A stretch of DNA of 64,000 nucleotides from Octopus sinensis (lineage: Eukaryota). Every line of letters starts with the position of its first letter. The stretch's first letter is position 1. The stretch spans positions 91,698,001 through 91,762,000 of the forward strand of contig NC_042998.1 of assembly GCF_006345805.1 (NCBI RefSeq), given 5' to 3'. The position numbers and the translations under genes were made by a program. The notes beneath the pieces were generated by a model. It was not told the DNA's origin. It was given only the letters and a program-made list of their open reading frames with translations, and ran no database searches. Shown here piece by piece: positions 23,275-64,000 of this stretch.

Positions 23275-23580
23275 ATGTTCCATCTCCACCAGTAGGACCA
23301 TTAAAGATCAGCAATGTTACATTTAACAGTGCTGACTTAGAATGGAAACCTTCTGAAAAGGATGGCGGGACACCTATAACTAATTATATCATTGAATACA
23401 AGACTTTAGACAGAACCACATGGTCTAAAGCAGGATCAGTTGATGCACATACCACAACATACACAGCAAAAGATCTCTTTGAAAATACTGAGTATCTATT
23501 CCGAGTCATTGCTGTCAATGCAGAAGGCCGCAGTGCTCCTTTGGAAGCTACAGATATTACAAAACCAACACGAGATCTAA
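23275..23580 (+). CDS. Exon 21, FN3 domain 26, type A (absent from ORF track)
   Basis: tttccag; VPSPPVGPLKISNVTFNSADLEW...TKPTRDL; GTAAGA; 306 nt. Confidence 0.9.
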
Positions 23581-23865
23581 GTAAGATTTTGCTTTAAAAT
23601 TTATAACAATTCTTAAAGAAAATTAAGTTTTTAGGCTATATCAACAGATTTTTAGCATGGTATGTGGATGTTAAATGGTGATGATTTATACTGTATAAAA
23701 ATTTTGTTTATAAAATTTATTGAATTCTCTCATGGAATAACTTTAAAAATTATTTCACATTTTCTATATTTTATATATTTTCACAAATATGTCTAATAAT
23801 ATATGGTTATTATTTAAAATATATGCTTTTGAAATTTTAAATATTAAAATTTTTTCAATTTCTAG

Positions 23866-24168
23866 AACCTCCAGAGCCTCCTATTGATTTAGTTCCAACC
23901 AAAGTAGGAGAAGACTATGCTTCATTAGAATGGAAACCACCAAGGAATGATGGTGGCAGTCCTATTACAGGCTACATCATTCAGAAAGCAGTCAATAAAC
24001 CTGACAACTGGAGTAAAGTTACAAAAGTGGGTCCCTATGAAACATTCTGTAAAGCAGTTTCTCTCCAGGATGGCACTGAATACTACTTCTCAGCAATTGC
24101 TGAAAACAAAGTGGGATTGAGTGAACCATGTGTGAGTCCAAAACCTGTGATACCCAAGAAAGGACCAA
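23866..24168 (+). CDS. Exon 22, FN3 domain 27, type B
   Basis: tttctag; PPEPPIDLVPTKVG...PKKGP; GTAAGT; 303 nt. Confidence 0.92.
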
Positions 24169-24356
24169 GTAAGTTTCAATCTGTTAGAATACATTTATAT
24201 TTTATATATAATCTATTTATGGAGATATTTTTAAACTCTAATTTCTAGTAACATTCTCATTTAAAATTATATTTAAAAATCATGTTGTAGATAGATGGAT
24301 ATATATATTTATCTTTGTATGAAATATGTTACATATTCCTAATTCTTGTTTTTCAG

Positions 24357-24662
24357 CTATTCCTGCTAAACCAGAAGGACCTCTTGTGGTCACTGATGTT
24401 CAGCGTACCTCCATTAGTATTAAATGGAAGCCTTCACCAGATGATGGTGGCTCTCCCATAACAGGTTACATTGTTGAGAAACGTGCTGCATCAAGCACGT
24501 TTTGGAACAAAGTTTCCAAAGTCAATGCATCCACTTTTGAATTGTGCTGTCCATATCTAAAAGAGAAAACTGAATATTATTTCCGTGTTATTGCTGAAAA
24601 CAGAGTTGGAGAGAGTGCTCCTTTGGAGACCAAGGATGCTACTCTTGCAAAGAGTCCATTTG
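24357..24662 (+). CDS. Exon 23, FN3 domain 28, type C
   Basis: ttttcag; IPAKPEGPLVVTDVQRT...LAKSPF; GTAAGT; 306 nt. Confidence 0.92.
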
Positions 24663-24884
24663 GTAAGTACATACTATACATAACTTAAAAGAATTTCACT
24701 TAAAGTCATCAGAATTTTAAAAATATATTTTAATTTCAGTTGCATCAGAATATCATAAAAAGATTACATCTGAAATCCCAAAGCTATAGTTGATGAATAT
24801 TTTCCAGTTTTGTAAAGTTGCTTTCATAAAGATCTACATTATTATTTATTAATCAAACTTCTGTTAATTTAGCCCAAACTCTGG

Positions 24885-25002
24885 CTCGATATTCCACTGA
24901 AGTCGACTTTGCCTTTCATCCTTTTGGAGTTGATAAATTAAGTACCAGTCGCGTACTGGGTCGATCTAATCAACTGGCCTTGTACCTAGAGTAGAAAAGA
25001 AT
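24885..25002 (+). mobile_element. SINE-like family S5 fragment
   Basis: gtcgactttgcctttcatcctttt.gagttgataaattaagtaccag recurs at about 30010, 33430, 33660 (+) and 43160 (-). Confidence 0.6.
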
Positions 25003-25241
25003 AGAATATTTAGTTAGAAATGTTTGATATGTATCACTGATATATTTTAAATGATTGTAATCAATAAAATTTCCTAGAAGACACCTTATGCAATCAAAAG
25101 TCCATATTCATTTTGAACAAGGATAAAAGTTTATAAGAAAAGTTTTAAAATCTCTCCCAGAAAATATTTGTTGATATATCATTTTAAATATTCATGTTTC
25201 ATTTATAGACTATAACATGATCTTTTATATAAATTTTTCAG

Positions 25242-25547
25242 ATGTTCCTTCAAGCCCACAGGGACCACTTGAAGTTGATAATGTAACTTATAATTCTGTT
25301 GACCTTACATGGAAGGCACCAAAGAATGATGGTGGCAAACCAGTAACTAGTTATATTATTGAATACAAGCAAGCCTCACGTACATATTACACTAAAGCTG
25401 GAACTGTGGATGGATCAACTCTTACTTTCTATGTTTCAAATCTAAACGAAGATACTGAATATTATTTCCGTGTTATTGCTGTGAATGAAGAAGGCCAAAG
25501 TCAACCACTGGAAACTTCTGATTACACTAAATTACCCAAGAAAGTTG
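25242..25547 (+). CDS. Exon 24, FN3 domain 29, type A
   Basis: ttttcag; VPSSPQGPLEVDNVT...LPKKV; GTAAGT; 306 nt. Confidence 0.92.
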
Positions 25548-25884
25548 GTAAGTTGAACTCAATTTTTGAAATATTCTCTTCCATTATGTATCAATGTGTA
25601 TCATCAAAAGCTCCAAATGATCATTAGAACTAGTGGTCAACTGTAATTCCTCTCTCTCTCTCTCTTCCTGTACCATGTCTACAGGTCTTAGTGGTCATGG
25701 ACCTCCATTCCAGAATCTCAAGATATATGTTTTTCTTGGGAACGATACAGCTCTAGTTTCCTGTTGCCATTCTGCCAATCTCTTACTCTTTGTTAGACTC
25801 TTGCTTCCCAAGCTTACTACTGAAGCACAATAACTATTCAACCTTCACAGGGTTTTTCATAGAGAAAACATTTTTAAAAAAAAT

Positions 25885-26200
25885 TCTTTTTCTAGTTTCA
25901 GTCATTAGACTGCAGCTGTGCTGGACCAATCACTTCAAGAACTTAGTTTATCATATCAACTCCTGGTATATGTTCCTGGCTAGAACTTACTTAGTCAGTC
26001 TCAATTTGTTAACTGCAAAGTTAGAGCATAAAAGAACACAAACAACATCACCACAATATAAACACACATTTTATACACATACAGATATGATTTCCATTTA
26101 CTAAATTCCATTCATGAAATGTTAATCAACCAAAATATTATCAGACTCAGAACCATGTAGTTGTGACTGTGAACTGAGCTAATAACGTCACAGTCATACT
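25885..26200 (-). mobile_element. SINE-like family S2, degenerate reverse copy
   Basis: gtttcagtcattagactgcagctgtgctgga is the reverse complement of the S2 3' end. Confidence 0.45.
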
Positions 26201-26470
26201 TGAGATCATATATTACAGAAATATAAGGAAAACTTAATTTGTATTCTGCAGAATGGACCAAATTCATTGATTAAAATAAACTTTTATGGAAATTAGATTA
26301 TGATTTAGCTGGCTAGACAGGTGTGGATTAAAGAGTTGCAGATCTTGCTAAAATTGATATTGACTTTATACATTTGAGATTAGTGAAATAAATATCTGGA
26401 GTGAACAGGGATAAAGTAGTCTTAATGCTGTAACACTGAATTGCTCAGTTGTTCAATTAATTTACTTTTG

Positions 26471-26686
26471 TTGCCAGTACCGCCTGACTGGCCCTCGTGC
26501 CAGTGGCATGTAAAGCACCCACTACACTCTCAGAGTGGTTGGTGTTAGGAAGGGCATCCAGCTGTAGAAACTCTCCCAGATCAGATTGGAACCTGGTGCA
26601 GCCATCTGGTTCACCAGACCTCAGTCAAATCGTCCAACTCATGCTAGCATGGAAAGCGGACGTTAAACGATGATGATGATGATGAT
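26471..26686 (+). mobile_element. SINE-like family S1 with (GAT)n tail
   Basis: Aligns with 10472-10683. Confidence 0.8.
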
Positions 26687-26851
26687 TATATAGATTTTCT
26701 TGACCTTACACGACTTGTCCTGTGAGGCAGATATAAAATGTAAGATAACAGAAACATTTTAAATGTAAATTTCTATATACCTCTCTGAGTATTTGATATC
26801 CAATGGAGTATATTTTTACATATTTCTAGTAAAATTTTATTTATATTTCAG

Positions 26852-27154
26852 ATCCTCCAGGTCCACCAGTTAACTTGAAATCAACAGCAGTTGGTGCTGA
26901 TTTCACTATTTTGGAATGGAAACCACCTCGTTCTGATGGTGGGGCAAAGATAACACACTATGTCATTCAGAAGCGTGAGAAAAAGAGTGATGAACGCCAG
27001 AGAGTTTCATCTGTCGAAAGCCACTTACTTACTGATAAAGTCACTGGTCTTAAAGAAAATATTGACTACTACTTCTCAGTATGTGCAACAAACTCTGTTG
27101 GAACGGGTGCACCATGTGATATGGATCAACCTGTCACTCCTGTGAAAGAACTCC
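26852..27154 (+). CDS. Exon 25, FN3 domain 30, type B (Trp-less subtype)
   Basis: atttcag; PPGPPVNLKSTAVG...PVKEL; GTAAGT; 303 nt. Confidence 0.92.
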
Positions 27155-27595
27155 GTAAGTCTTCAGAATCTTGTTTTATGTATTTAATATATTTAAAGTG
27201 CTGATTACTTTACTCCATCTTTGTCTTTTTGAACGTCACTTTCTGTTTTAATAAATAACAATTTTAGTATGTTTTAAAAGGTTCTGTCAGCTTATTTAGA
27301 TTTTATTTTAATTTGAAATAGAGTGTGTTTGATTTTCTTTCTTCTATGGAAGTCAAAATGTTTTAGATAATATCTTAAAATTAGCTCTGAACTTTTCTTT
27401 GCTATTTTCTAAAACTTATTTTTTTTCATCTGACTAATATCTTTAAAATATAATTGTTAATGAACAGCCATTTAACTTACTGTTTTCTTTTCTTTTTAAT
27501 TTGTTTCTAACTTTGATGCTGAAGTTTCAAATATATCTTTGTATATCACTCAGATAATTATGACAATGTAGCAACAACCATAATTTATATTTCAG

Positions 27596-27901
27596 AAAAA
27601 CCTTCTAAACCAAAAGGTCCTATTAAAGTGTTTGATATCCAGAGAACCGCAATGGGCATTACTTGGAAATATCCAGATAGTGATGGTGGTTCACCTATCA
27701 CAGGGTTTATTATTGAGAAAAAAGAAGCCAAACGCCAATATTGGAGCAATGTTGCTACAGTTCAATCTGATGTAACCTCTTATTGTGTTCAGAGCCTTTC
27801 GGAAGGAACTGAATATGAATTTAGAGTTATTGCAATCAACAAAGTTGGTCGCAGTGATCCATTAGAGACTGATGGAGCCACACTTGCAAAGAGCCCTTAC
27901 A
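27596..27901 (+). CDS. Exon 26, FN3 domain 31, type C (C' subtype)
   Basis: atttcag; KPSKPKGPIKVFDIQRT...LAKSPY; GTGAGT; 306 nt. Confidence 0.92.
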
Positions 27902-28943
27902 GTGAGTAGCTAGATATAATATATTTTTATTATTCTTTAATAAACATATGTATATAATTTCAATCTTCATAATTTTGAATTGCATAAATTTTCTAATTTA
28001 ACTTTTGTATGATGAATAACTTGATCAGGAAATTTGTATGTTGGCTTAAAATTTATAGAGACTTTAAATTTGAGCTTCATGCTCAGTGTCAGTCATATAT
28101 TATGGAAACTTATTGAGTTAAGTTAGGTATATATGTTGACTTATGATAAGTTTTGACCTTGTTATCATTAGTCTGGAGTATAATCATTCAGTAATTGATT
28201 ATGCAAACAGTAGCTAATTAATTTATAATAGAAATATATCAAAAATATGTTTATTCTATGAGATTCTTTTACAATCTTTTGAAATTTGATTATAAAGAAT
28301 TCATTATAATCTTATATGGATTTGATGTATCCATAGCCAGGAAATATAAGCTTTAACAAACATAGATTGTCAAGAATGAACATATATTGAAAATTTTGTT
28401 GGAATGGTAAATAAAGTACCAGATCAATGTTTAGATTTGTCTGTCTAAGTTTGAATTCAAATTCTTTTGAGTTGAGTTTACCTGTTATTTGTATACAGTC
28501 AGTGAAATAAGTACCAGTAATTTACTGTACTTATTTTTTTACTTACATTCTTAATGAAAGAAAGAATAAGCCTTGTATAGATTTAAAGTATCTGTACAGT
28601 TTAAGCAACAAATTGATACTTTTGTATTTACTCTTTGACGCTTGTAATATCTGATTAGCATAATGTAAAATTCTATCACATCTGATTTGTGTTATTTCTG
28701 AATATCTGATTAGCATAATAATTTCATCTTTTGTTTTTTTTTACTTGCTTTCTTCTATATCTTTACTTTTCTTAGTTAATTCTATCCATTCATTATCAAT
28801 AAAAAAATTTTAAACTATAAAACCTCCCTTTCCTGTGTTCCATAACTGAAAATATATTAGTAAAAATTTGAGAATATTCAAACATAATTAATTTTCTGTT
28901 GCAACTCTTTGTTAAAAATTGCTGTATATTTGTTTCCTTGCAG

Positions 28944-29249
28944 ATGTTCCTGGACATCCTAAAGGACCATTACAAGTAACTGCTGTGTCCCATAATTATG
29001 TGGATCTTGAATGGAAAGCTCCCAGTGAAGATGGAGGACAACCTATTACTAAATACATCATTGAATATAAATCTGCCTCTCGTTTAACCTGGAATAAGGC
29101 TGGAGAGGTTGATGCAAATACTCTTGAATATCGTGTTACAAGTTTAGTTGAGGATACGGAATACTACTTCCGTGTTATGGCAGTAAATGCAGAAGGCGAG
29201 AGTCCTCCACTAGAAACAACTGATGCAACAATTCCAAGGAAGGAAATAT
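28944..29249 (+). CDS. Exon 27, FN3 domain 32, type A (A' subtype)
   Basis: cttgcag; VPGHPKGPLQVTAVS...PRKEI; GTAAGT; 306 nt. Confidence 0.92.
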
Positions 29250-29289
29250 GTAAGTAGTTATTATTATTTTGATTATTATTATTATTATT

Positions 29290-29845
29290 GAGTGATATAG
29301 CAGTGCATGTCATCAAACTGACACTGGGGTAAAATATACGAAACCCAGTATACCCATCATGACTACCCGTCTGATAAGGGTACACCAGATACATGCATCA
29401 CAACCATATATGCGTAACATGGTGATCTCATATCAAGTTAAACTGTGTATGACCTTGCAGGTGGGGCCCAGTTAGAATTTTCTTTGTGTTGAGTAGCCCA
29501 TCTCACTCAAAAGGTCCCTGAATCAGGGTTGTTTAAGGATGTTGAACAAAAACCCCATCTTTCCAGAGGTGAATTATCCAAATGCCCCATAATTCCTTTC
29601 AATACGTGGCTATGATGCTCCCCAACTACTTCTGCTCATGATCAGAGATGCACATATCATCAGTCGCTAAGGGACATGCTCAACTGGTTAAGGTCAAACA
29701 ACTGACAAGCAAATCTGTTATTGAGCAGAATATTTGCAGGAGTCTTATCTTTTATACCGAAACAAAACATGTACATGATAACACTTCCAATGAGTTAAGA
29801 TCAGAAGCCATGAGAGCCACTGCCTGGTACTGCATCAGGGTATTT
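29290..29845. mobile_element. Interspersed repeat family R3, copy 2 (longer)
   Basis: Aligns with 10880-11270; flanked by (TTA)n and (CTT)n. Confidence 0.75.
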
Positions 29846-29933
29846 CTTCTTCTTCTTCTTCTTCTTCTTCTTCTTCTTCTTCTTCTTTTTCTCCTCCTCC
29901 TCCTCCTCCTCCTCATCATCATCATCATCATTA
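29844..29933. repeat. (CTT)n(CTC)n(CAT)n microsatellite
   Basis: Direct reading; source of the poly-L and poly-R pseudo-ORFs. Confidence 0.95.
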
Positions 29934-30385
29934 TCAACAAGGTTGCTGAATTATTAGCATGTCAGGCAAAATTCTTTGTGGCATTTCTTCTGGCTCTTTA
30001 CATTCTGAGTTTAAATTCTGTGGACATCAGCTTTGCTTTTCAACCCTTTAGGGTCAATAAAATAAAATCAGTTAGAAAGAATTATTATTATAATATGTAC
30101 ACACAAAGTTACAAATATTAATGTGTGTGTGTGTGTGAAAGAGAGACAGAGACCAGCATGGCCATATCCAAATTACTGGAATCAGTAAACAAGCACATTA
30201 TTAACAAAACAACACCAGCAACATAATGTTTTCTTTACCTTTTTTGTATTTGTACTTACAATTGTTTTCTTATAAAATTATTTGAAATTATTTTTGTAAA
30301 TGAATTTACTAATAATATTATATAAAAATCAGCTGCTAATTTTTTATTATTAACTTTATATAAATATATATTTTTTTTAATTTAG

Positions 30386-30688
30386 CACCCCCTGGACCTC
30401 CATTAAATTTCACAACAACCCAAGTTGGAAAAGATTTTGTTTCTTTACAATGGAAACCACCAACAGAAAATGGAGGTTCAAAGGTAACAAAATACATCAT
30501 CCAGATGAGAAAATCAAAGAAAGATAACTGGGAACGTCTCATGACAGTTGATTCTTTTGAACATAGCTGGAAAGTGACTGACCTCACTGAGAATGTTGGT
30601 TACTATTTCGCTGTGTGTGCTGAAAATAAAGCTGGTACTGGACCGTTAGCAGAACTCTCAGATATCATTACACCAAAGAAAGAAGCTG
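30386..30688 (+). CDS. Exon 28, FN3 domain 33, type B
   Basis: aatttag; PPGPPLNFTTTQVG...PKKEA; GTTAGT; 303 nt. Confidence 0.92.
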
Positions 30689-31299
30689 GTTAGTGTTTAA
30701 CTTTAGCATTAAATATTTGCTTTTCATATACAGCTTTTGATTATTAAATGCATAATATAGCTGTTGCAGTGTGGGGTTTAGCATAAAACTATAGGTTCCT
30801 CTAAAATAAGCTGTCATATTCCTTTTTCTGTTTTTTCATGGTGGTTCTTTGTTACTGCATAAATTTTGTTAGCTGTACCTTCTTTTCTATTTTTCTTGAT
30901 ATTTCATGCTAAATAACGTTGTTGCCAAATGGGAATGTTTTTATCTAAACTTCCCCAAAATTACTCTTTAAAATATTGATTATCATAATTTTAAAACACA
31001 TAGTAATTTGATTATGCAGTGATTTTCCTTTAATAATGTCTGATAAAAAGTACAAGTTTCTTTTTAATAGTTGTTGGAAATTGTAGATTTTTGAAACAGG
31101 TCTAAAATAGTACTTAATCATAAACTTATAAAGAATTTAACTTTAGATCAATATAATTATCTAATCTTACTGTTGTTATATAAGTCTCTTCTAATTAAAA
31201 TTAATATCATACACATGTGTACATATAATATTTGTTATTTAATTATGTGACAAACAAATGTTACAAATGTATATAATTTCTTAACAAAATTTCTTTTAG

Positions 31300-31605
31300 G
31301 CTTGCCATCTCCTCCTATTGGACCACTTGATGTGTTTGACATTAAACGAACATCAATCAGCATTAAATGGAAGCCACCAGCTGATGATGGTGGTTCTCCT
31401 ATAACTGGATATTCTATTGAGAAGAGAGAAGCTTCTCGTTCTTCCTGGAGTAAAGTTGAGAAAGTGAGCGATCAAGTGACAGAGTTCTGCTGCAGAAACC
31501 TCATTGAGAAAACTGAATACTTCTTTAGGGTTATTGCTCACAATTCTGTTGGTGCAAGTAAACCTTTGGAAACAGTTGGTGCAACATTAGCCAGAAGTCC
31601 TTATG
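31300..31605 (+). CDS. Exon 29, FN3 domain 34, type C
   Basis: cttttag; LPSPPIGPLDVFDIKRT...LARSPY; GTAAGA; 306 nt. Confidence 0.92.
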
Positions 31606-32618: not shown

Positions 32619-32924
32619 ACGTCCCATCAGCACCTGTTGGTCCTCTAATTATTGACAATGTGACACAAAATTCAGCTGACCTTCAATGGAAACCACCAGA
32701 GAAGGATGGAGGTTTGCCTGTGGTTAACTATATCATTGAATATAGGACACCTACTAGGACAACCTGGTCTAAATCTGGAACAGTTAGTGGAACAACTACA
32801 AAATATACTGTTAAAGACTTGCTTGAAGATACTGAATACCTTTTCCGAGTCATTGCTGTTAATGATGAAGGCCCAAGTCATCCACTGGAAGCAACAGATA
32901 TTACCAAACCAACTAGGAAAATAT
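32619..32924 (+). CDS. Exon 30, FN3 domain 35, type A
   Basis: ttttcag; VPSAPVGPLIIDNVT...TKPTRKI; GTAATT; 306 nt. Confidence 0.92.
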
Positions 32925-33053
32925 GTAATTACATTTTTATAGTTTAATTTGCAGTTTCCCAGTAAATAATTACACTATTCTTAATATAGACAGCAAATTG
33001 TTTCCTATCTTTCTTGAAGCTAACACTAAATTCGTTGTTTCTGTGCACTCACA

Positions 33054-33167
<114 letters not shown>

Positions 33168-33379
33168 CTATTCAAAGAAATTTTTGAAAGTAAGGAAATA
33201 CATTGAAATCATTTCAGCCAAAAACTTTTGGAAAGAAAAAGTCAGTGAAAAGCAAAACATAGAAAGGGTTAATCATGGAGAATTATTTAGCTCATATGTG
33301 AAAAATATCAATGCTGATAGTTGACAGGGAAAAGTTATATTTTTCTCTAATATACTTTAAAATTAGCCATCAAAGTACG

Positions 33380-33775
33380 ATGTGGTATTTAGTTTCAGCC
33401 CTTCATGTACTAATTATGAATCTTCCCGTGGTTAACTTTGCTTTTCATTTTTTTCTGATGATGATGAAATAAGTGCCAGTCAAGCAATAAGATAGACATA
33501 ATCAACTATACTTTTCCCACAAATTTGAAACCTGGTGCTTATGTTGGGTCAATATTTACTTCTTAGTATTTAAATTTATGGTAGCAGGGTGGCAGAATCA
33601 TTTGCATAGCAAGCTAAACGCTTAGCAGCATTTTGTCCATTTTGAGTTTAAATTCCATCAAGGTCAACTTTGCTTTTCATCCTTTCAGGGTTGATAATTA
33701 AGTTTCAGTTGTGGACTGGGGTCCACTTAATCCCTTCACAATAATCCCTTGTGTCAATATTTGAAACCAATATTT
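33380..33775 (+). mobile_element. Two adjacent degenerate S5 SINE-like copies
   Basis: The motif ggt.aactttgcttttcat occurs at about 33430 and 33662, each followed by a taagt..cagt motif. Confidence 0.55.
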
Positions 33776-33873
33776 AAACTTCCTAATGGATTTTAAACTA
33801 GAAAACATTAGTTTTGTAATTGCATGTTTATTCTAATCTAAACTGGCTCAATGTATTGATTTCTCTTTGTCAG

Positions 33874-34170
33874 ATCTACCTGGGCCACCTGTTAATTTGA
33901 GAGCTTCCAGAGTCGGTGAAAACTTTATTGAGATTGATTGGAATCCTCCAGAAAATAATGGAGGCACACCAATTACAGGTTATATTGTCAAAAAGTCTCA
34001 AGATAAATCAACTTGGACAAAGGTTGCCTCAGTTAATGCTTATGAAACATATTGCCGAGCAAGTAAACTACCTGAAGGTCAAGAATTTTATTTCCAAGTT
34101 TCTGCTGAAAACAAAGTTGGTGTTGGTGAACCTTGTGAAAGTAAACCAATCTCAACTAAGAAGGGAGCAA
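33874..34170 (+). CDS. Exon 31, FN3 domain 36, type B
   Basis: ttgtcag; LPGPPVNLRASRVG...TKKGA; GTAAGT; 297 nt. Confidence 0.92.
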
Positions 34171-34458
34171 GTAAGTTTAAAAATTTTTCATTTCATTTCT
34201 AAAATTGATAAGTTGCCAAAATTTTTTATGCAAAATTTCTTGAAAGCTTTTGATTATATAATAATTTTATATAATTATATAATAATTTTCTTGTACAAAT
34301 TTTTTCATGGTTTTGAATTATAACTTTATTCATTAATATGCTACAAAAATATAAATTTTAATGTTTAATGTTATTTAAAGAATGTACAAAAAATATTGAT
34401 TGTTTTTGTATATGTGTTTGAATAAAAATTAAAGATTTTACTTCTTTTTTTTTTCAAG

Positions 34459-34764
34459 CTGTTCCATCCAGACCGATTGGTCCAATTGCTGTAACCGATG
34501 TCCAGCGAGATTCTATAAGTATCAAATGGAAAGCATCTCAAGATGATGGTGGTTCACCAATCACATCTTATAATGTTGAGAAAAGGCCTACTTCAAATAG
34601 GTACTGGTCTCAAGTTGCTAAAGTGGATAATTCAACTTTCGAATTAACTTGCAAAGGTCTGAAAGAGAAAACTGAATACCACTTTAGAGTTATAGCTGTC
34701 AACAAAATTGGAGAAAGTGAACCACTTGAAACCAAAGATACCACTTTAACTCGAAGTCCATTTG
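34459..34764 (+). CDS. Exon 32, FN3 domain 37, type C
   Basis: tttcaag; VPSRPIGPIAVTDVQRD...LTRSPF; GTACGT; 306 nt. Confidence 0.9.
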
Positions 34765-34795
34765 GTACGTACAAGACCTTCCATTTAGTGTATTT

Positions 34796-34857
34796 CAAAA
34801 ACAATATGTGATTGATATGACATAATCAAAAACAATATGTGATTGATATGACATAAT
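34796..34857. repeat. Perfect 31-bp tandem duplication
   Basis: caaaaacaatatgtgattgatatgacataat x2. Confidence 0.95.
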
Positions 34858-35655
34858 CTACTTGGCTAGGTATTCAGTAGCGATGGACATTGTTTGATGC
34901 AGTTCCTTTATACAGATTATTTTATACATTGCAAATGTAATCATTCAACTAGAATATCTTTGAATTGAAAAACTTGACTTTAGAATTAATAAGAATAACC
35001 CTGTTAAGAAAGATTAGCATATTTTAATCATTAAAGCTACTTAATGCATGAAATATCAAATATTTGTACTAGCAGCAAAAAATGTTCTCAGAGCTTATAT
35101 TCTGTCTACCTCCAGGAATATTTTAAGCTCTCTTATGAGAACCAATATATAGAATGTCAACTACAGCATATTGAAAATGTAGTAGCTAATTTGATATAAA
35201 TGCATAAAGAAAAGTCATAATATATGCAGAAATTATGTTTGACATAATTTTATATATACAAAACTTTAGGTATAATGCATGAACAAACCTACACGCAGAT
35301 ATTTTTGTACAAACAGAAAGTGCTATAAACAGAGCAAATTTATGTAAATGTTGTTTGATATTACATACAGCTAACCTTAAATCCTCAAAGAAACATTAAT
35401 TGCCTTAAATGTAAGATTTGAATGATTTAAATGATCAAAAAGAAAGTAATTATTTGAATTAAGAAGAATGACCTCATTAGACATATAAAAAATATTGAAA
35501 CTACATTATATAATATTGAAACTACAATATATAATACAAACTACAAATATTACATTCAATAATATCCATGTTTTTGGTAAAAAGTATATTCTGAATCATT
35601 TTGTACATTACAATATTGCATTAATTATATGTATCATATAATTTGTTTCTTTTAG

Positions 35656-35961
35656 ATGTGCCATCATGTCCAGTTGGACCTTTAGTTATTGACAATGTCA
35701 CACATGAGAGTGCTGATCTTAAATGGAATCCACCAGAAAGTGATGGTGGTAGTCAACTCCTTGGATATATTATTGAGTCCAGATTAGCTTCACGAACATT
35801 CTGGAGCAAAGCAGGAACTGTTGATAGCAAAACAACCAAATTTAAAGCAACTAATTTGATTGAAAATACTGAATACTATTTCCAAGTCATTGCTTACAAT
35901 GCAGAGGGCAATAGTAAACCACTGGAAGCAAGTGATGTTACTAAACCCACAAGAAAACTAG
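35656..35961 (+). CDS. Exon 33, FN3 domain 38, type A
   Basis: cttttag; VPSCPVGPLVIDNVT...TKPTRKL; GTGAAT; 306 nt. Confidence 0.92.
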
Positions 35962-36829: not shown

Positions 36830-37132
36830 CACGACCTGGTCCACCTGTTTATTTGAGGACAACCAAAGTTGGACACGATTTCACTGTGCTAGAATGGAAA
36901 GCACCAGTTTATGATGGTGGTTCAAAGATCACTAACTATATTATCCAGAAACGTGAGAAACAAAATGAGGAACGCCAAGATATCGATACAGTTACTGGTC
37001 ACGAACTCAGTAGCCACATTAAAGGACTCAAACAAGAGATTGATTATTACTTCTCAGTTTGCTCAAAGAATAAAATTGGTGTCAGTGATCCTTGCGATGC
37101 TGAACAGCCTGTTACTTTGAAGAAAGCATTAG
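36830..37132 (+). CDS. Exon 34, FN3 domain 39, type B (Trp-less subtype)
   Basis: gtaatag; RPGPPVYLRTTKVG...LKKAL; GTAAGT; 303 nt. Confidence 0.92.
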
Positions 37133-51020: not shown

Positions 51021-51323
51021 CTATTCCTGATGCTCCTGTTAACTTACGAGCAGCAAGAATTGGTGAAAATTTCATAGAATTAGAATGGAATCCTCCAGTT
51101 AACAATGGAGGTACTCCAATCAGAACTTATAACATTGAAATTTCCTCAGGAGCACCAGATAAATGGGTCAAACTCGCCAAAGTTTCTTCACTTGAAACTT
51201 ATTGTAAAGCAACGAAGCTTGATGAAAACATGGATTATTTCTTTAGAGTCACAGCTGAGAATGATATTGGTGTCAGTCTTCCAGCTACAACACCAAAAGC
51301 AATTACAACTAAGAAAGGCCTAT
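51021..51323 (+). CDS. Exon 49, FN3 domain 54, type B
   Basis: tttgtag; IPDAPVNLRAARIG...TKKGL; GTAAGT; 303 nt. Confidence 0.92.
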
Positions 51324-51503
51324 GTAAGTAATTAATTAAATTGTAAATTGAAATGTAGTTAATACCTTTGAAATATAAAGAAACAAATAAAAATACAGTA
51401 TTTTTAATTTAATTATTGTAATGCTTAAATGTGTATTAAGTTTTAAAATAAATATCCAATATCAAAAGAAGGATGTCTATATAAATTACAAATTTACTTT
51501 CAG

Positions 51504-51809
51504 TGGTTCCATCCAAGCCAATTGGTCCTCTTAGTGTTACTGATGTCCAGCGTAAATCTATCAGCATCAAATGGAAAGCACCATCTGATGATGGTGGTTC
51601 TCCTATTACTGGATACATCATAGAAAAACGTCCTGAGTCTGCACGATTCTGGTCAAAGGTCGATAAAGTTCGTGCTGACGTCACAGATTATTGTGTTAGG
51701 GATCTCCAAGAAAGAACTATGTATCACTTCAGAGTGATTGCTGAAAACAAAATTGGAGAGAGTGAACCTTTGGAAACTAAGGATGCCACAACAGCCAGAA
51801 GTCCATATG
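51504..51809 (+). CDS. Exon 50, FN3 domain 55, type C
   Basis: ctttcag; VPSKPIGPLSVTDVQRK...TARSPY; GTGAGT; 306 nt. Confidence 0.92.
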
Positions 51810-52066
51810 GTGAGTTCAGTCATTTTTTTATTTAAAGGCATTTCTTGATTTGGTAAAATCTTAACATAATTGAAACAAAAATAAAACTTGGAAAATAAAC
51901 TTTAATACTGAATTGAACAAATGAAATTTCATTAAAAATAAGCCAATTCAATATGGAAAGTTGCTGTAAAAATGTTAAGATGGTGTTGTTGATGTTGTTG
52001 CTGCCGTTACTAACAAATGATGACACAAATACACAATCTATTATATATTTCCTTTCTATTTTTTAG

Positions 52067-52372
52067 ATGTGCCATCTGCACCAGTTGGTCCATTGGAGAT
52101 CACAAATGTCACCAATAATTCTGCTGACTTGAGCTGGAAACCATCTGCCAATGATGGTGGTACACCAATAACTGGATACATTATTGAACACAGAGTAGAT
52201 TCCAGAACCTTCTGGACTAAGGCAGGCACTGTTAATGAGAAAACTACCACATTTACAGTACCAAATCTTACAGAAGACACAAGTTACCATTTCCGTGTCT
52301 TTGCTGTTAATGCTGAAGGACAGAGCAAACCACTTGAATCTACTGATGTCACAAAACCAGTGAGGAAGATTG
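52067..52372 (+). CDS. Exon 51, FN3 domain 56, type A
   Basis: tttttag; VPSAPVGPLEITNVT...TKPVRKI; GTGAGT; 306 nt. Confidence 0.92.
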
Positions 52373-52504
52373 GTGAGTAATAATCTATTTCTCATTAGAA
52401 TTTTGTCTTCAGATTTTCAGAAGCTTTGTATTTATATGGTAGGATATTAAAGATTATCAGAGAATTTTGTGTATTAAAAATATTTTATTGGAAATGTTTT
52501 TCAG

Positions 52505-52810
52505 AACCACCAAGTGCACCAATTTACTTCAGAGCTACACAAGTTGGTCCTGACTTTGCAGTCTTGGAATGGAAGAAACCACATTCAGATGGAGGTTCTA
52601 AAATCACCAATTACATCATATCTGAAATGGGTGGTACATCATCTGATGTGAAGACTAAAATGAAAACTGTATCAGCTTATGAACATACTTGTCATTTGAA
52701 AGACTTGAAACAGAATTTGTCCTACTACTTCTGTGTTCAAGCTGAGAATAAAGCTGGTCTAAGTCCTTACTGTAATGCAGAATATGCAGTTACACCAATG
52801 CGACCTCTTG
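52505..52810 (+). CDS. Exon 52, FN3 domain 57, type B (Trp-less subtype)
   Basis: ttttcag; PPSAPIYFRATQVG...PMRPL; GTAAGA; 306 nt. Confidence 0.92.
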
Positions 52811-52930
52811 GTAAGATATTTGATATCTCTGTGTAATTTTTGTTTATAGATCTTAAACTTTCTTGGTATTTGATGTGAGTAAAACTTGAGAGACATTATT
52901 TTATCATTGTGTACTGTTTTGTATTTTTAG

Positions 52931-53236
52931 AAAAACCATCGAAACCAATTGGTCCTCTGAAAACCTATGATATTGAGAAAACATCTATTTCCATTTCCTG
53001 GAAAGCTCCAGAAGATGATGGAGGTAGTCCTCTCACTGGTTACATTATTGAGAAGAAAGAAGCTAATAGACAATACTGGAACAATGTGGCTAAGGTAGCA
53101 CCATCAGTGACCAACTACCGTGTTGAGGATCTGAGACAGAACTGTGAATATGACTTCAGAGTTACAGCAATCAATAAAATTGGTCTTAGCGATCCATTAG
53201 AGACCGATGCTTCAACAATGGCAAAGAGCTCATTCA
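52931..53236 (+). CDS. Exon 53, FN3 domain 58, type C'
   Basis: tttttag; KPSKPIGPLKTYDIEKT...MAKSSF; GTAAGT; 306 nt. Confidence 0.92.
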
Positions 53237-53801
53237 GTAAGTCATATATTTGGATTAATATTTTATGCCTGAATGCCATCTCTATCTGTTTATTTGATTT
53301 TCTTTGGTACACATACATAGGCAACTGCAATTTAGAGCTGTTCTAAATATGTTTACTCATGACGTTTTGAAGAAAAGCATATTTGTCAATGAAATTTTGC
53401 AGGGATATGTTTTCTAAGATGTGAAGTGCTGTTATGGTGATAGAATTTATAGAAGTGATTTTTTTGATGGAAGAGATTAAAATCATTTTCTCCTACCTCA
53501 GTTTCCCTAAATATATATGCTTAAACTACTTATATTATATAATCTACATTCATAAAAAACATTTCTGCAAACTTTGCTCTCAAAATATAAATCTTAAAGA
53601 GTTATGAAGAAACAAAGTCAAGAGATGGGGGGAATGATCCAAAACTTCTCAAAAAGTTTTTTTTTGTATGTCATCAGTATAATCTTAATCTATGTTATAA
53701 AGAATATACCAATGCAAACTTCATTAATAGCTATGCATTTTTCAGAAAGTTATGAAGAAAGAATATTGTGGGGTGGGGACAGTGCCAGAATGTGATTTTG
53801 C

Positions 53802-53836
<35 letters not shown>

Positions 53837-53945
53837 ACTTTTTATTCTAGAGTACCACATTTAAATATATTTTAGGGATATACTTTTATGAATACTTATG
53901 AACTTGTTTTCATTAATTTGGTAATTTCCTTATTTCTTATTGTAG

Positions 53946-54251
53946 GTGTACCATCTCGTCCTAAAGGACCTCTTGAAGTTACCAAAGTCTCTTATGACTA
54001 TGTGGATCTTGAATGGAGAGCTCCTGACAGTGATGGAGGCACTCCAATCACTAAATATATTGTTGAAGTAAGATCTGCTGCACGTTTGTCTTGGAACAAA
54101 GCAGAAGAAGTTGATGCCAAATCTACTGTTGCCAGAGTTACAGGTTTAGTCGAGGGTACAGAATATTACTTCCGTGTGATTGCTGTCAATGAGGAAGGAG
54201 AAAGTCCACCCTTGGAGACATCAGAATCTACGATACCAACAAGAGAAATAA
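53946..54251 (+). CDS. Exon 54, FN3 domain 59, type A'
   Basis: attgtag; VPSRPKGPLEVTKVS...PTREI; GTAAGT; 306 nt. Confidence 0.92.
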
Positions 54252-54401
54252 GTAAGTCAAAAAGTTATTCATGTATGTATTTATGTGTGATTGTATGTTT
54301 GGGTGAATTTGAAGAATAGACAGTTCTTTTACTAAATTTCTGAGTAATTGCTTCATTTTTCTAAGAAACTATATTTTGATTATCATATTTTACTTTATTA
54401 G

Positions 54402-54704
54402 TGCCACCTGGACCTCCTGTTAATCTTACGGCTACAAAGATTGGTAAGGACTTTGTGAATCTTGAATGGAAGCATCCTAAGGATGATGGTGGTTCTAAGA
54501 TAACCAAATATGCAATAAAATCAAGGAAAGACAGAAAGAGTGAATGGCAAACTATGATGTCTATTGATGGTAGCAGCCGAAGTTTCAAAGCAACAGATTT
54601 GAAAGAAGGCACTGAATATTACTTTGCTGTCTGTGCTGAAAACAAAGCTGGTTTTGGCAAGATGGCAGAAATTTCTGAAGCTATCATCCCTCTTAGAGAA
54701 GCAA
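54402..54704 (+). CDS. Exon 55, FN3 domain 60, type B
   Basis: ttattag; PPGPPVNLTATKIG...PLREA; GTAAGT; 303 nt. Confidence 0.92.
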
Positions 54705-54842
54705 GTAAGTAAAACATTTTATTTTATCCTCTATTTGGTTCATCTTTATTTATGATTGATCTCATATATGTATTTAAGCATTGTATTATTCCAATCTATA
54801 TAATATATTTGATTTTTTTCCTTGCCTTTGAAAATCTTTCAG

Positions 54843-55148
54843 CTGTACCTTCTATACCAACTGGTCCTCTTGATATCACTGATGTTCAACGTACCAGCAT
54901 TAATATTAAATGGAAAGCATCAAAGGATGATGGTGGTTCACCAATTATCGGATATAGGGTGGAAAAGAAACATCCCAGAGCACTGTTATGGAGCAGAGTT
55001 GATCAAGTGGATGCCTCAACATTTGAAATGTATATTAGAAATCTATATGAAAAGAATGAGTACCTATTTAGAGTCATGGCTATAAATGCAATTGGTCAGA
55101 GTGTCCCACTTGAGTCTGATTCTCCTATACTTACAAGAAGTCCTCATG
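54843..55148 (+). CDS. Exon 56, FN3 domain 61, type C
   Basis: ctttcag; VPSIPTGPLDITDVQRT...LTRSPH; GTATGA; 306 nt. Confidence 0.92.
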
Positions 55149-57236: not shown

Positions 57237-57443
57237 GTAAGTTTAGTCATTATATATTGAATGTATTTCTTGAAAATTTTGCTTTTAATAGTAAAACAAA
57301 ATGTTACATTCAAAATAATTAAAATAACAAAAGTATTTTCATTGAAAAGGCAAAATAATGAGCCACCTGAATTTCCATTAATATTCATCAATAACTGCAA
57401 TATACTGAGTGTTATATTACATATATTCCTATTTATTTCTTAG

Positions 57444-57749
57444 ATGTGCCATCTGCACCAATTGGTCCATTGGAGATCACAAATGTCACCAATAATTCTG
57501 CTGACTTGAGCTGGAAACCATCTGCCAATGATGGTGGTACACCAATAACTGGATACATTATTGAACACAGAGTAGATTCCAGAACCTTCTGGACTAAGGC
57601 AGGCACTGTTAATGAGAAAACTACCACATTTACAGTACCAAATCTTACAGAAGACACAAGTTACCATTTCCGTGTCTTTGCTGTTAATGCTGAAGGACAG
57701 AGCAAACCACTTGAATCTACTGATGTCACAAAACCAGTGAGAAAGATTG
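57444..57749 (+). CDS. Exon 60, FN3 domain 65, type A
   Basis: ttcttag; VPSAPIGPLEITNVT...TKPVRKI; GTGAGT; 306 nt. Confidence 0.92.
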
Positions 57750-57881
57750 GTGAGTAATAATCTATTTCTCATTAGAATTTTTTCTTCAGATTTTCAGAAG
57801 CTTTGTATTTATATGGTAGGATATTAAAGATTATCAGAGAATTTTGTGTATTAAAAATATTTTATTGGAAATGTTTTTCAG

Positions 57882-58187
57882 AACCACCAAGTGCACCAAT
57901 TTACTTCAGAGCTACACAAGTTGGTCCTGACTTTGCAGTCTTGGAATGGAAGAAACCACATTCAGATGGAGGTTCTAAAATCACCAATTACATCATATCT
58001 GAAATGGGTGGTACATCATCTGATGTGAAGACTAAAATGAAAACTGTATCAGCTTTTGAACATACTTGTCATTTGAGAGACTTGAAACAGAATCTGTCCT
58101 ACTACTTCTGTGTTCAAGCTGAGAACAAAGCTGGTCTAAGTCCTTACTGTAATGCAGAATATGCAGTTACACCAATGCGACCTCTTG
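57882..58187 (+). CDS. Exon 61, FN3 domain 66, type B (Trp-less subtype)
   Basis: ttttcag; PPSAPIYFRATQVG...PMRPL; GTAAGA; 306 nt. Confidence 0.92.
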
Positions 58188-58307
58188 GTAAGATATTTGA
58201 TATCTCTATTTAATTTTTGTTGATAGATCTTAAACTTTCTTGGTATTTGATGTGAGTATAACTTGAGAGACATTATTCTATCATTGTGTACTGTTTTGTA
58301 TTTTTAG

Positions 58308-58613
58308 AAAAACCATCGAAACCAATTGGTCCTCTGAAAACCTATGATATTGAGAAAACATCTATTTCCATTTCCTGGAAAGCTCCAGAAGATGATGGAG
58401 GTAGTCCTCTCACTGGTTACATTATTGAGAAGAAAGAAGCTAACAGACAATACTGGAACAATGTGGCTAAGGTAGCACCATCAGTGACCAACTACCGTGT
58501 TGAGGATCTGAGACAGAACTGTGAATATGACTTCAGAGTTACAGCAATTAATAAAATTGGTCACAGTGATCCATTAGAGACCGATGCTTCAACAATGGCG
58601 AAGAGCTCATTCA
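58308..58613 (+). CDS. Exon 62, FN3 domain 67, type C'
   Basis: tttttag; KPSKPIGPLKTYDIEKT...MAKSSF; GTAAGC; 306 nt. Confidence 0.92.
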
Positions 58614-59398
58614 GTAAGCAACAACTCTTTATAGTATCTTGTATTGTATTTGTTTCCATGTCACCTTTTTTGAAAATACAACAGTTTATTTCCAATAATT
58701 CAAACATACATTTAGATGTTGAAGAATGTAAATAAGATCCTTGAGTTAATCTATTTCAAAGAAATAAATGTGTGAATAGCACTTTTGAACAAAGATTATA
58801 AGATAATTTTACTTTAACCACTTTATGAAATTTAAAATATCTTTGGAACTCTAATTGTAGTCTGACTTCGCAGCACATATTGAGTTTCATTCACTTATTA
58901 CCCTGAAATGCATAAAACACATGTATACCTTTGTATTTTTAGATTTTCATAATTAATTTGATTACATAAAACTTTGTGTTCATAAACTTTTTTAAAATAA
59001 ATTTTTATGGTTGAATGTGTATCTAATGATCAGTGAATTTCTAAAGATATCTAAGTCTTTGAGTGGAGTATTCAATATTATTTACATTAAGTTTTCAAAT
59101 TTATCTACAAATTTTGAACAAATTTAGGTGTAAGAAGATCATAAATTATATTTCTACCCCGATATGTGTTTCACATGCATATTCCTTTTGTTATCATAAA
59201 CAGTAATGAACAGGATAAAATATATGTGAGAAAGCTATCACATTATAGAATTAATTTTAACTTCCTTCTTGATGCTTTTATAAACTGCTGAAAATAGATT
59301 TGTAAATAAAAAGAAATTACTCAAATTCATTTTTATCTTCATGTTTAATTATAGAGAATTATCTTAAAACATCCATTCTTTAAAATTCTTCATTTTAG

Positions 59399-60973: not shown

Positions 60974-61276
60974 TGCCTCCTGGAATTCCTGTTTCTTTCA
61001 TGGCTAATAAAGTGGGCAAAAACTTTGTTAATCTTCAATGGAGACATCCTAAAGATGACGGTGGTTCAGCCATTCTCAAATATATTATTAAAATGAGAAA
61101 AGATACAAAATCTGATTGGGTCAAACTGATGACAATTGATGGTAGGGAAACAGCTTACCGTGTACCTGACTTAACTGAGGGTACTGAATACTACTTCTCA
61201 GTTAATGCAGAAAACAAAGTTGGACCTGGAAAGTGTGCTGAACTTCCTGAAGCTGTTGTTCCAACAAGAGAAGCAA
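60974..61276 (+). CDS. Exon 64, FN3 domain 69, type B
   Basis: tttttag; PPGIPVSFMANKVG...PTREA; GTAAGT; 303 nt. Confidence 0.92.
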
Positions 61277-61453
61277 GTAAGTATCTCAAATGACACCTGT
61301 TTACAGATATATTCCATAAAATATTGATTTGAAATAAATAAAAAAAAATATTTATGAAAATAACTGAAGATACATAAGAATTTAAAGAATTAAATATGTT
61401 CATAATTCTAATTTTTTAATTTAAAAATATTGTTTGTACCTTGTTTTTTTTAG

Positions 61454-61759
61454 CTGTACCTTCATGTCCTACTGGTCCTCTTGACATTACTGATGTCCAA
61501 CGTACTAGCATCAGTATTAAATGGAAGGCACCAAAGGATGATGGCGGTTCACCAATTATTGCTTACAATGTTGAGAAGAAGCATGCTAAAGCCCATATAT
61601 GGAGTAGGGTAGATCAAGTGGATGCTTCAACATATGAAATGTGTGTTAGAGGCCTTTATGAGAAGAATGAATATCTCTTCAGAGTTATTGCTGTCAACAA
61701 GATTGGACAGAGTCCACCTCTTGAGTCAGACGCAGCTACTTTAGCTCGTAGTCCATTCG
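61454..61759 (+). CDS. Exon 65, FN3 domain 70, type C
   Basis: tttttag; VPSCPTGPLDITDVQRT...LARSPF; GTAAGT; 306 nt. Confidence 0.92.
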
Positions 61760-62343
61760 GTAAGTTTCTTTTAAAATATTTTAGTTCTAGTTTTGTTGTG
61801 AGTGTGGTGTTGATATATGAATAAAGTAAAATCTTTTGTGCTTACAAAATATTGTGTAGTGAAGATTACTGTCACTTACTATTCAGTAAATTTACTGGAT
61901 TGTGGTACTTCTCTTTCCACCTTACCTTCCTCTCCAACTTGATGGTGGTTTAGCCCTAGAATAAAATATCTGTCTTTAGGCCTTCCAACCTATCTACTCT
62001 ACACTAGATTCCATCATATCATCCAGATGGAAGAAAATTGCCAGAAATTACAAGCCAAAGGAAAAACAGAGTCAGTAGATATTGTTCGGCACTCTATGTG
62101 ACAATAGCTCCCACTATTCAGCGATACTCAGAAATTGAAATAAGGCATGCAAAATGATTTGCCATTCTCCATGCAACTTGCAACATGTCTGTGTTTCTAC
62201 ACTTATTTCAAATTAATAATTCCTATCATTAACACTGCCAGTGCTAACGATAGGCATTATTAGTTTTGAATAAAACTAAATACAAACGAGAAGACAATTA
62301 ATGTAACCATGCTAGTTGTCCCATAAATTAGTTACTGTATGAC

Positions 62344-62557
62344 CATCATCATCATCATCACCGTTTAATGTCCGCTTTCCATGCTAGCATAGGTTGGATG
62401 ATTTGACTGAGGACTGGCGAACCAGATGGCTGCACCAGGCTCCAATCTGATCTGGTAGAGTTTCTACAGCTGTATGCCCTTCCTAATGCCAACCACTCTG
62501 AGAGTGTAGTGGGTGCTTTTATGTGCCACTGGCGCGAGGGTCAGTCAGGCAGTACTG
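62344..62557 (-). mobile_element. SINE-like family S1, reverse copy with (CAT)n
   Basis: Reverse complement of 26471-26686. Confidence 0.8.
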
Positions 62558-63834
62558 TTGAATTATAAATAAGAAAGATGAACATGAAAATAAGGAACTT
62601 ATGAGAGGATTCAGAATATGTTACTGTAAATCTGATGTAGATAGAATAAATGTAGGAAAGCACTCTTAACATAGAAAATAGGCTCTGATGTTATCAAAAG
62701 AGAACAGATAAGAAAGTAATTAAATACAATGGATAAATTGAAAATATTGAACAGCTGAGGATAAGAAGAGCACACAACTGAAAAAGCATTGAAAATACAC
62801 AGCATAAAGAGCTTGAAAATAAGATGAAATATGTTTGGTGGATTAAACACTCTGGTAAAATTTCAGCAATATTGAATTAAATGTGAACTGAAGTCAAGTA
62901 TAGATTAAAATAATATAACCATAAGAGACTACATGAAATCTTATCAGACTTTCTAAGACGTAGTTAACAGAAATTGAGCAGAAATACCAAGGAATATCTA
63001 ACCACATTATCTCAAGACAGCTCATTTTATCTCCAAAAGAACATACACATAAACATGGCACTATCAAATTAGGATAAGTTACTAAAGATGGTTTGTATTT
63101 ACACAAACTTTGAACTAAAGAGATTATATTCTTGGACTGAACATTCCTCTCTATCCTTTAATATATTAGTTTTATTTCACAAGATCACTTCCAAGAGCTC
63201 AGTTTTGGCATTACTTTTAGTTTCATTTTCCTGTTTCATGAGAAAGAAGGAAAAGATATTGCTTAAATTTGAAGTTCAAATACATTCCAATGAGGCTAAG
63301 CTATTTTAAAATAGCATGGTAAAATAGGAGTAATTGAAACATGACAGCTTTAAAAAGAAAGAGTAAGAATAAGTATTTTAGAGTAGTGAACAGCAAATAT
63401 TATATTCATTTCAAACAAATTATATTCCACTAGCTTTCCATTATAATGAATTATATATTTTCTTTCAAAAACACATTTTGCTGATTAAAATAGTATTTAC
63501 CTTAAATTCTATTAAATTTGCTTTGAAAATAAGAATATTGTTCCAAATATAGCCAATATAAGTGATCTTTTTCAATTTTCATCTTCTCTTTTGCCTCATT
63601 ACAATAAACTTATAATAAAACTTTGAAAAATTATAGGTTCTTCACTCTATTTATAACTTTCATCATACTATATAGGTATATTAAAAAAATTTAGTAAGCA
63701 AAAACAAAATAGATCAATGAATTAACATTTCATATAATTGTATACTATTCAGCTTATTCTCCATTTTAATCTAAATTAACGCTTATCACTTTTCATATAA
63801 TTTATTTCTCCTACTTTTATTTGCCTATTTTCAG

Positions 63835-64000
63835 ATGTGCCATCTCCACCTGTTGGCCCACTGGTTATCTCAAATGTCACCTACAATTCAGCTGATCTTG
63901 AATGGAAACCATCTGAAAATGATGGTGGAACTTCCATTACAGGATATTTGGTTGAATACAGAACAGCTACCAGAACCACATGGTCAAAGGCAGCAACAGT
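63835..64000 (+). CDS. Exon 66 (3' truncated), FN3 domain 71, type A
   Basis: ttttcag; VPSPPVGPLVISNVTYNSADLEWKPSENDGGTSITGYLVEYRTATRTTWSKAAT. Confidence 0.9.
   Translation, partial: MCHLHLLAHWLSQMSPTIQLILNGNHLKMMVELPLQDIWLNTEQLPEPHGQRQQQ

Follow-up and report, generated by a model that had tools for sequence, protein, structure and literature searches.

A nine-domain period in a titin-type Fn3 gene of Octopus sinensis, probably a product of old block duplications and in-register gene conversion

Does a regular super-repeat in a giant protein mean that the protein measures something? The question is raised by a stretch of 64,000 nucleotides (nt) of Octopus sinensis DNA (assembly GCF_006345805.1, contig NC_042998.1, positions 91,698,001 to 91,762,000 of the forward strand; hereafter the window), in which open frames of ~100–150 codons line up along the + strand, separated by AT-rich, microsatellite-rich introns. 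A preliminary description had seen in it a nine-domain (3x3) super-repeat and, by extension, a possible filament ruler of independent origin. We find 71 tandem Fn3 domains in the window, numbered r1–r71: a motif scan gave 69 whole domains, and a profile built from these added two partial ones at the window ends. Nothing else credible came out of the profile scan of the window (three minus-strand matches had E above 2), and Rfam gave no matches. Sixty-three domains are each encoded by an exon of their own, 294–306 nt long and always a multiple of three, with AG/GT borders and phase 1-1. The domains follow an A-B-C triplet order across the window, those of class C ending mostly in SPF or SPY, and Pfam fn3 was called in all four pieces tested. 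We think it fairly probable that this is the mid-part of one spliced titin-type Fn3 gene, coding for a putative myosin-filament strut of mollusc muscle, whose nine-domain period stems from old block duplications together with in-register conversion.

The nine-domain units occupy the right-hand part of the window as follows.
23275..31605, + strand: unit 1, r26–r34, 915 amino acids; r26 starts at exactly 23275
32619..40317, + strand: unit 2, r35–r43, 912 amino acids
40688..48702, + strand: unit 3, r44–r52, 915 amino acids; RNA-like contigs show r49, r51 and r52 spliced in that order
50205..55148, + strand: unit 4, r53–r61, 916 amino acids
55435..61759, + strand: unit 5, r62–r70, 915 amino acids
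63835..64000, + strand: r71, partial A-type exon and start of a sixth unit (hidden Markov model, HMM, E=2.2e-19; 87% DNA identity to r62)

Within r26–r70, mean protein identity is 67% at lag 9, 60% at lag 18 and 59% at lags 27 and 36, as against 50% at lag 3, 49% at lag 6, 49–51% at lags 12 and 15, and 35–37% at lags not divisible by three. For 42 of the 45 domains the closest relative lies at a multiple of nine, and for 34 at exactly nine. The excess of lag 9 over lags 3 and 6 amounts to 17.3 points and was reached in none of 5000 within-class shuffles (p=2e-4). The earlier claim that domains nine apart are each other's closest relatives is thus borne out, as are the peaks predicted at lags 3 and 9 and the 3x3 architecture of titin-type domains, to which the A-B-C triplet, the nine-domain period, Pfam fn3 and titin as top match in the PDB all testify. 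A near-identical tract (r55–r59 versus r64–r68, 92–99%) accounts for part of the lag-9 peak, units 4 and 5 being 83% identical in register and other unit pairs 58–62%; without the last unit or units the excess is still 12.0 points (r26–r61) or 10.3 points (r26–r52). The five-fold iteration from 23275 held as to the units themselves, but five is a lower bound, since r71 opens a sixth, and a weaker period is also present upstream. There, in r2–r25, identity is 56% at lag 3, 58% at lag 6 and 61% at lag 9, an excess of 4.0 points (p=0.007) that is due to the pairs r2/r11, r3/r12 and r9/r18. The first two of these pairs are 77% and 74% identical (1438–12407), which suggests an older or separate nine-exon duplication.

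Is this row of exons translated as one protein? The upstream part of the row contains one exon with a bearing on the question.
1..120, + strand: r1, partial C-type Fn3 exon (HMM E=1.3e-11; GT donor at 121), the gene extending upstream of the window
1438..22130, + strand: r2–r25, eight A-B-C Fn3 triplets with a weak nine-domain period in lag identities
14854..16680, + strand: exon of six domains, r15–r20, in an open frame of 624 codons; homologous borders without AG/GT

The exons could in principle be alternative cassettes of the Dscam kind, or the near-identical units an artefact of assembly; one domain per phase 1-1 exon and tracts of 98% identity are what such readings would draw on. Contigs were compared for 4 of 24 runs and for positions 44001–64000 of the window, and we relied on the intron-skipping joins of two runs, X20 and X13, guessed to be RNA. 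Contig 14 of X20 (8110 nt) carries r49, r51, r52 and r53 in order, with a gap of 303 nt where r50 fits and 6202 nt ahead of r49, a length equal to ~20 more domains, and a contig of X13 joins r52 directly to r53. Exons joined in order across introns point to one tandem protein and speak against alternative cassettes, as do the six domains lying within one exon. At the same time, the two near-identical tracts are flanked by different introns, and the four older units show the period on their own, which argues against an artefact. Mutually exclusive splicing and misassembly, which we regard as barely credible, were rejected on these grounds. No Ig domain was met among the 71 consecutive Fn3 domains; the introns were not scanned with an Ig profile, but the RNA-like contigs join r51 to r52 and r52 to r53 directly. 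As regards the fused exon, five introns are absent at its homologous borders, possibly lost through a complementary DNA, and a relative, P0375, has the same fused six-domain open frame at 97% identity.

How old is the period, and what has kept it? Between lag-9 pairs in r26–r54, 338 of 568 four-fold sites differ (0.60), compared with 0.57 at lag 3 and a saturation level of 0.64; silent sites near saturation between units indicate that the block duplications are old. The picture is quite different for r55–r59 versus r64–r68, with four-fold differences at 7/42, 0/52, 0/45, 1/42 and 2/52 sites (0–17%), and the tracts concerned are these.
52039..53241, + strand: homogenised tract, copy 1, r56–r58 with two short introns; 98.1% identical over 1204 nt to 57415–58618
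57415..58618, + strand: homogenised tract, copy 2, r65–r67 with two short introns; four-fold differences 0/52, 0/45 and 1/42
53934..54257, + strand: exon-limited homogenised tract, r59; partner r68 at 59386–59710, 97.5%; four-fold differences 2/52
51464..51848, + strand: older exon-limited tract, r55; partner r64 at 56891–57273, 91.4%; four-fold differences 7/42

The likeness of r56–r58 to r65–r67 breaks off at the outer exon borders, give or take a few bases, and does not extend to the long introns; protein identity in the neighbouring pairs r54/r63 and r60/r69 drops to 55% and 62%. Diverged neighbours and unlike long introns fit gene conversion better than a recent copy of the whole block, and patchy, in-register gene conversion is likely to lie behind the near-identical tracts of units 4 and 5. 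Serial duplication is also the origin given for titin's own repeats (PMC10665226; this and the papers below are cited from passages of their text), and a nine-exon block is present in triplicate in the PEVK region of human titin (PMC9142044).

Contig depth in DNA run X5 bears on the same tracts: unique pieces stand at 13–18, r63 at 33, r65–r66 at 53 and r69–r70 at 35.
56482–56785, 57462–58253 and 61060–61766: X5 depth raised about twofold, threefold and twofold over that of unique pieces, respectively

Neither r63 nor r69 is closely matched elsewhere in the window, so the raised depth hints at a further near-identical unit, the sixth, downstream of it. This is a hint only, as depth is no copy number, and run X2 is noisier (unique pieces 19–85).

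Was the nine-domain period inherited, or did it arise in the octopus lineage? Among named relatives, gastropod proteins come closest. The same C-A-B cassette as in the window is present in the gastropods Lottia (P0001) and Bulinus (P0265, Btru_006487), and the best-match identity to Bulinus is 40–63% per window domain. Class calls, counted as clear at a margin of 15 bits or more, were clear in Lottia and Bulinus, and among the 264 proteins compared a repeated ABC was clear only in Lottia P0001 and P0220. Identity in the ABC zones falls steadily with lag, from 65 through 56 and 48 to 46% at lags 3, 6, 9 and 12 in Bulinus and from 78 through 71 and 61 to 58% in Lottia (16 and 14 domains), so that neither of the two gastropod zones shows a nine-domain period; Bulinus domains 12 and 15, at 99% identity, are recent lag-3 copies. 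The tree separates window from gastropod domains in every class, with clades of window A, B and C domains supported at 0.95, 0.84 and 0.98, respectively, which places the expansion and the nine-domain period after that split.

The gastropods also suggest to what family the gene belongs. Three Lottia models lie on one scaffold of 478,504 nt, namely ESO99761 (Ig and Fn3), ESO99760 (ABC) and ESO99758 (a later Fn3 run), and the C-terminal tail of the Bulinus protein (56 amino acids) aligns weakly with leech, rotifer and unnamed-protein tails. The family layout is an Ig run, (Fn3x3-Ig-Ig)n, an Fn3-only run and a tail of 53–74 amino acids, with Fn3-only runs of 13–14 domains in leech and rotifers, 40 in Bulinus and 71 or more in the window. 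None of five relatives scanned has a Pfam kinase, the end of the octopus gene lying beyond the window, and best matches did not recover colinearity from rotifer to annelid. Placed in this way, through the Lottia scaffold models and the Bulinus tail, the octopus gene is likely to be a hyper-expanded member of an unnamed, kinase-less spiralian Ig/Fn3 family, and not titin or twitchin; it would then have the layout [Ig]n-(Fn3x3-Ig-Ig)n-Fn3 run-short tail. The polychaete 'connectin-like 1200K protein', on which no paper was found, may be an annelid member. Homologue searches returned no full-length cephalopod orthologue, one of them spanning 334–5000 amino acids and so missing larger proteins, and no earlier description of the gene or its nine-domain repeat was found in the openly accessible literature. 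The trees of PMC12198301 include Octopus sinensis, and an Fn3-only run goes unmentioned in the accessible passages and supplement text of that paper, whose figures may hold accessions.

Could the nine-domain unit nevertheless serve as a ruler, whatever its age? The titin comparison behind this idea is sound: the 11 domains, ~43 nm and ~4 nm per domain quoted in the preliminary description agree with a rise of 3.98 nm per domain (3.89 nm in the C-zone) and 43.8 nm per 11 domains (PMC7427331). Our best PDB sequence matches are titin A-band chains (E=2.5e-140), and titin also tops the fold search. A predicted model of the triplet r16–r18 (C-A-B; predicted local distance difference test 94.9, predicted template modelling score 0.64) overlays titin of the human cardiac filament with a template modelling (TM) score of 0.73 and a root-mean-square deviation of 4.8 Å over all 304 columns, and the titin A84–A86 crystal more poorly (TM score 0.59, 10 Å). 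Going by this overlay, a titin-like rise per domain is plausible here. At 3.89–4.5 nm per domain, three domains would span 11.7–13.5 nm and nine 35–40.5 nm; with the rise measured in titin, 3.9–4.0 nm, the figures would be 12 nm and 35–36 nm. Of the spans put forward earlier (~12–14.5 nm for three domains, ~36–43 nm for nine), the lower values, 12 and 36 nm, fit, and the upper ones, 14.5 and 43 nm, call for a rise of 4.83 and 4.78 nm, which exceeds the range of 3.9–4.5 nm per domain.

This bears directly on the possibility that, like the 11 domains of titin's repeat, the octopus domains keep step with myosin, three with the 14.5-nm crown and nine with the 43-nm three-crown repeat. The triplet is conserved between the octopus lineage and gastropods, the SPF/SPY ends of the C domains resemble titin's [N/Y]PF linker, and the crown spacing in Mytilus muscle is 14.53 nm (PMC2493523). 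However, the rise needed compares with 3.89–4.02 nm in titin and 4–4.5 nm for single domains, and a mean domain length of 101.6 residues against 98.5 in the titin C-zone chain is too small a gain to supply it. The 43-nm repeat is, moreover, a feature of vertebrate filaments. We regard this version of the ruler as very unlikely.

A ruler of ~36 nm deserves more attention, and with it the signatures of the nine positions. The position motifs singled out earlier occur strictly in register, with no off-register strict match, though not in every copy: C' in 3 of 5, RL.W.KA.EV in 3 of 5, GESPPLET in 5 of 5, KKG and Y.T.C.A each in 4 of 5, R.FW.KAGT in 4 of 4 and YRT.TR.TW in 3 of 4 whole domains. 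Positions 5, 6, 7 and 8 form clades of their own (bootstrap 94, 100, 99 and 95), position 9 does so for four of five copies (bootstrap 98), and positions 1, 3 and 4 do not resolve; unit 1 is the least differentiated, r29 and r34 barely carrying the signature of their position. The actin crossover measures 36–38 nm, and nine domains at 3.98 nm come to 35.8 nm. Paramyosin cores have a period of 72.5 nm with a 14.5-nm repeat (PMC12040844), and 72.5 nm divided by 18 gives 4.03 nm per domain. A unit selected to place one binding site per actin crossover, or two per paramyosin period, would also account for constant unit length, for distinct positions 5 to 8 and for the order maintained in P0391, a four-domain sequence from outside the window.

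Several facts of this kind weigh against the account that we favour, in which duplication and conversion suffice. Unit length is steady at 912–916 amino acids in all five units. The A' domains of position 7 (r32, r41, r50, r59 and r68; e.g. 53946–54251) are always acidic, with a net charge of -4 to -6, and hold all seven fixed class-A columns; if a ruler exists, position 7 is, from its composition, the best candidate binding site. In P0391, positions 3-4-5-6 follow in order at 54–68% identity, and this sequence may be either a further unit or another cephalopod's copy. The gastropod models are partial or have ~5 triplets, so they indicate that the nine-domain period is not ancestral and leave selection in the octopus lineage unrefuted. 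The fixed-column test reported below is weakened by simulation trees fitted to the same data, and even in titin, a true ruler, position-specific residues are scarce and concentrated at two positions (PMC10665226). Finally, the B domains of position 5 have lost the Trp before strand C' in all five copies, whereas the other eight positions keep it; domain 3 of P0391 also lacks the position-5 Trp.
r30 at 26852–27154, r39 at 36830–37132, r48 at 44022–44324, r57 at 52505–52810 and r66 at 57882–58187, all + strand: position-5 B domains, Trp-less

On the other side, fixed position-specific columns number 7, 3 and 4 in classes A, B and C, against 10.4, 6.9 and 6.3 in simulations (200 per class on fitted trees, with the converted copies r64–r68 dropped), that is, no more than descent predicts. 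Net charge is steadier within classes B and C than in LG simulations (p=0.005 each), to which we give little weight as LG omits charge, and charge constraint at the level of positions, beyond that of classes, was not seen (p=0.12, 0.27 and 0.33). Lag 18, at which a paramyosin register should stand out, shows no excess over lag 9 (60 versus 67% in r26–r70, 58 versus 60% in r26–r54). Gastropods, which have paramyosin and actin too, lack the nine-domain period in the zones compared. Further to that, 10 of the 19 periods of 2–20 domains fit one of nine listed filament lengths at 3.89–4.5 nm per domain, so a length match is cheap. A unit selected for register at 36 nm with actin or with half the paramyosin repeat would fit the domain counts, and we judge it unlikely. 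The independently evolved filament ruler of the preliminary description thus did not find support, given the rise that its upper spans call for, the gastropod profiles and the absence of an excess of position-fixed residues.

If spacing is not what matters, total length might be. The run might be a tether that does not lie along myosin, either extensible or a spacer, and links filaments to one another or a thick filament to a dense body. Such a tether would be compatible with the wide variation of run length in the family (13–14, 40, and 71 or more), and lineage-specific expansion and conversion would be in keeping with a spacer; in squid, thick filaments measure from 0.81 µm (tentacle) to 7.4 µm (arm) (PMC4757648). 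This is difficult to reconcile with titin, whose elastic tandems are Ig and whose Fn3 tandems sit on the thick filament (PMC10665226), the octopus domains being nearest to A-band Fn3. The tether, too, appears improbable to us.

We therefore return to duplication and conversion within a strut. An ancestral mollusc C-A-B cassette may have expanded separately in gastropods and in the octopus lineage, where three diverged triplets would then have been duplicated as a nine-exon block through unequal crossing-over. Unequal crossing-over favours in-register copies, so the period would be kept, and because all exons are phase 1-1, gain or loss of a block preserves the frame. Selection would bear on the fold and the triplet, and probably on total length, but not on nine-domain spacing, with the Fn3 run perhaps extended along the thick filament by analogy with titin's A-band Fn3 tandems.

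Twitchin aside, knowledge of the titin-like proteins of invertebrates is scant (PMC11285827). How invertebrate thick filaments are supported and their length set without vertebrate titin is poorly known, and the gene is a concrete candidate; the family also offers a natural series of runs (13–14, 40, and 71 or more domains) to compare with filament length. A super-repeat born within one mollusc lineage and homogenised in register is a warning that a higher-order repeat need not be a ruler. There is a bolder view, to which we give only a small chance, of a third lineage of giant muscle proteins, beside titin and twitchin, whose Fn3 rod grew from 14 to 71-plus domains in cephalopods. There it would have acquired a nine-domain ruler of 36 nm, in register with the actin crossover or with half of the 72.5-nm paramyosin lattice, and frame-preserving exons would tune its length between muscles. 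If true, it would mean exon-based length tuning between muscles over a ~ninefold range of thick-filament length.

The introns hold repeats of their own. A dispersed repeat of ~210 nt lies at 10472–10682, 26471–26686 and 62345–62557 (89–92% alike, one copy inverted), and contig depth is very high at 62010–62676, the site of one copy, as for an abundant mobile-element-like family. Pairs that are 79–85% alike are found at 10879–11267/29356–29764, 5608–5696/49047–49136 and 10390–10466/49549–49626, a 100-nt unit stands twice head-to-tail at 18676–18877 (88% matches), and 60009–60675, also intronic, is a further repeat or high-depth stretch.

Among known systems, the vertebrate titin A-band, with its D-zone 7-domain and C-zone 11-domain super-repeats, shares with the octopus run titin-type Fn3 domains, triplets with typed positions, a similar linker motif, hierarchical repeats from serial duplication and an extended triplet (here predicted). 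Unlike titin, the octopus run has no Ig among its 71 domains, a period of 3 and 9 rather than 7 and 11, one domain per exon, a computed ~36 nm instead of 43 nm per unit, and kinase-less relatives. Twitchin and projectin (Ig-Fn3-Fn3 repeats and a kinase) are likewise Ig/Fn3 giants of the invertebrate thick filament, built on a three-domain module, at ~35% identity, but their Ig-Fn3-Fn3 repeats are absent from the octopus Fn3 run. Mollusc twitchin has 15 Fn3 and 24 Ig domains and a kinase (PMC12040844), and in Octopus bimaculoides twitchin (P0355) exists as a protein of its own, in which gaps interrupt the 15 Fn3 domains and there is no ABC pattern. Fn3-only runs of 18–40 domains, none with triplet classes, are found in the ambulacrarian titin-like and twitchin-like proteins of a hemichordate (Saccoglossus P0320, P0271, P0007 and P0002) and an echinoderm (Patiria P0266); P0271, P0007 and P0266, with runs of 19–40 domains, have flat lag profiles (~50–59% at all lags), and a separate expansion is likely. 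Drosophila CG14964 (dMnM), compared by description only, is a muscle Ig/Fn3 protein that interacts genetically with myosin, and differs in its myomesin-like number and arrangement of domains (10.1101/2020.08.18.255760). There remain the unnamed spiralian giants (Bulinus Btru_006487, Lottia LOTGIDRAFT_141663, 141610, 141638 and 176120, Helobdella HELRODRAFT_191479, rotifer P0323, P0337 and P0328, and a Lineus titin-like protein): their Fn3 runs are shorter, and the gastropod ones lack the nine-domain period, yet it is in these gastropod members that the C-A-B cassette of the octopus gene is found.

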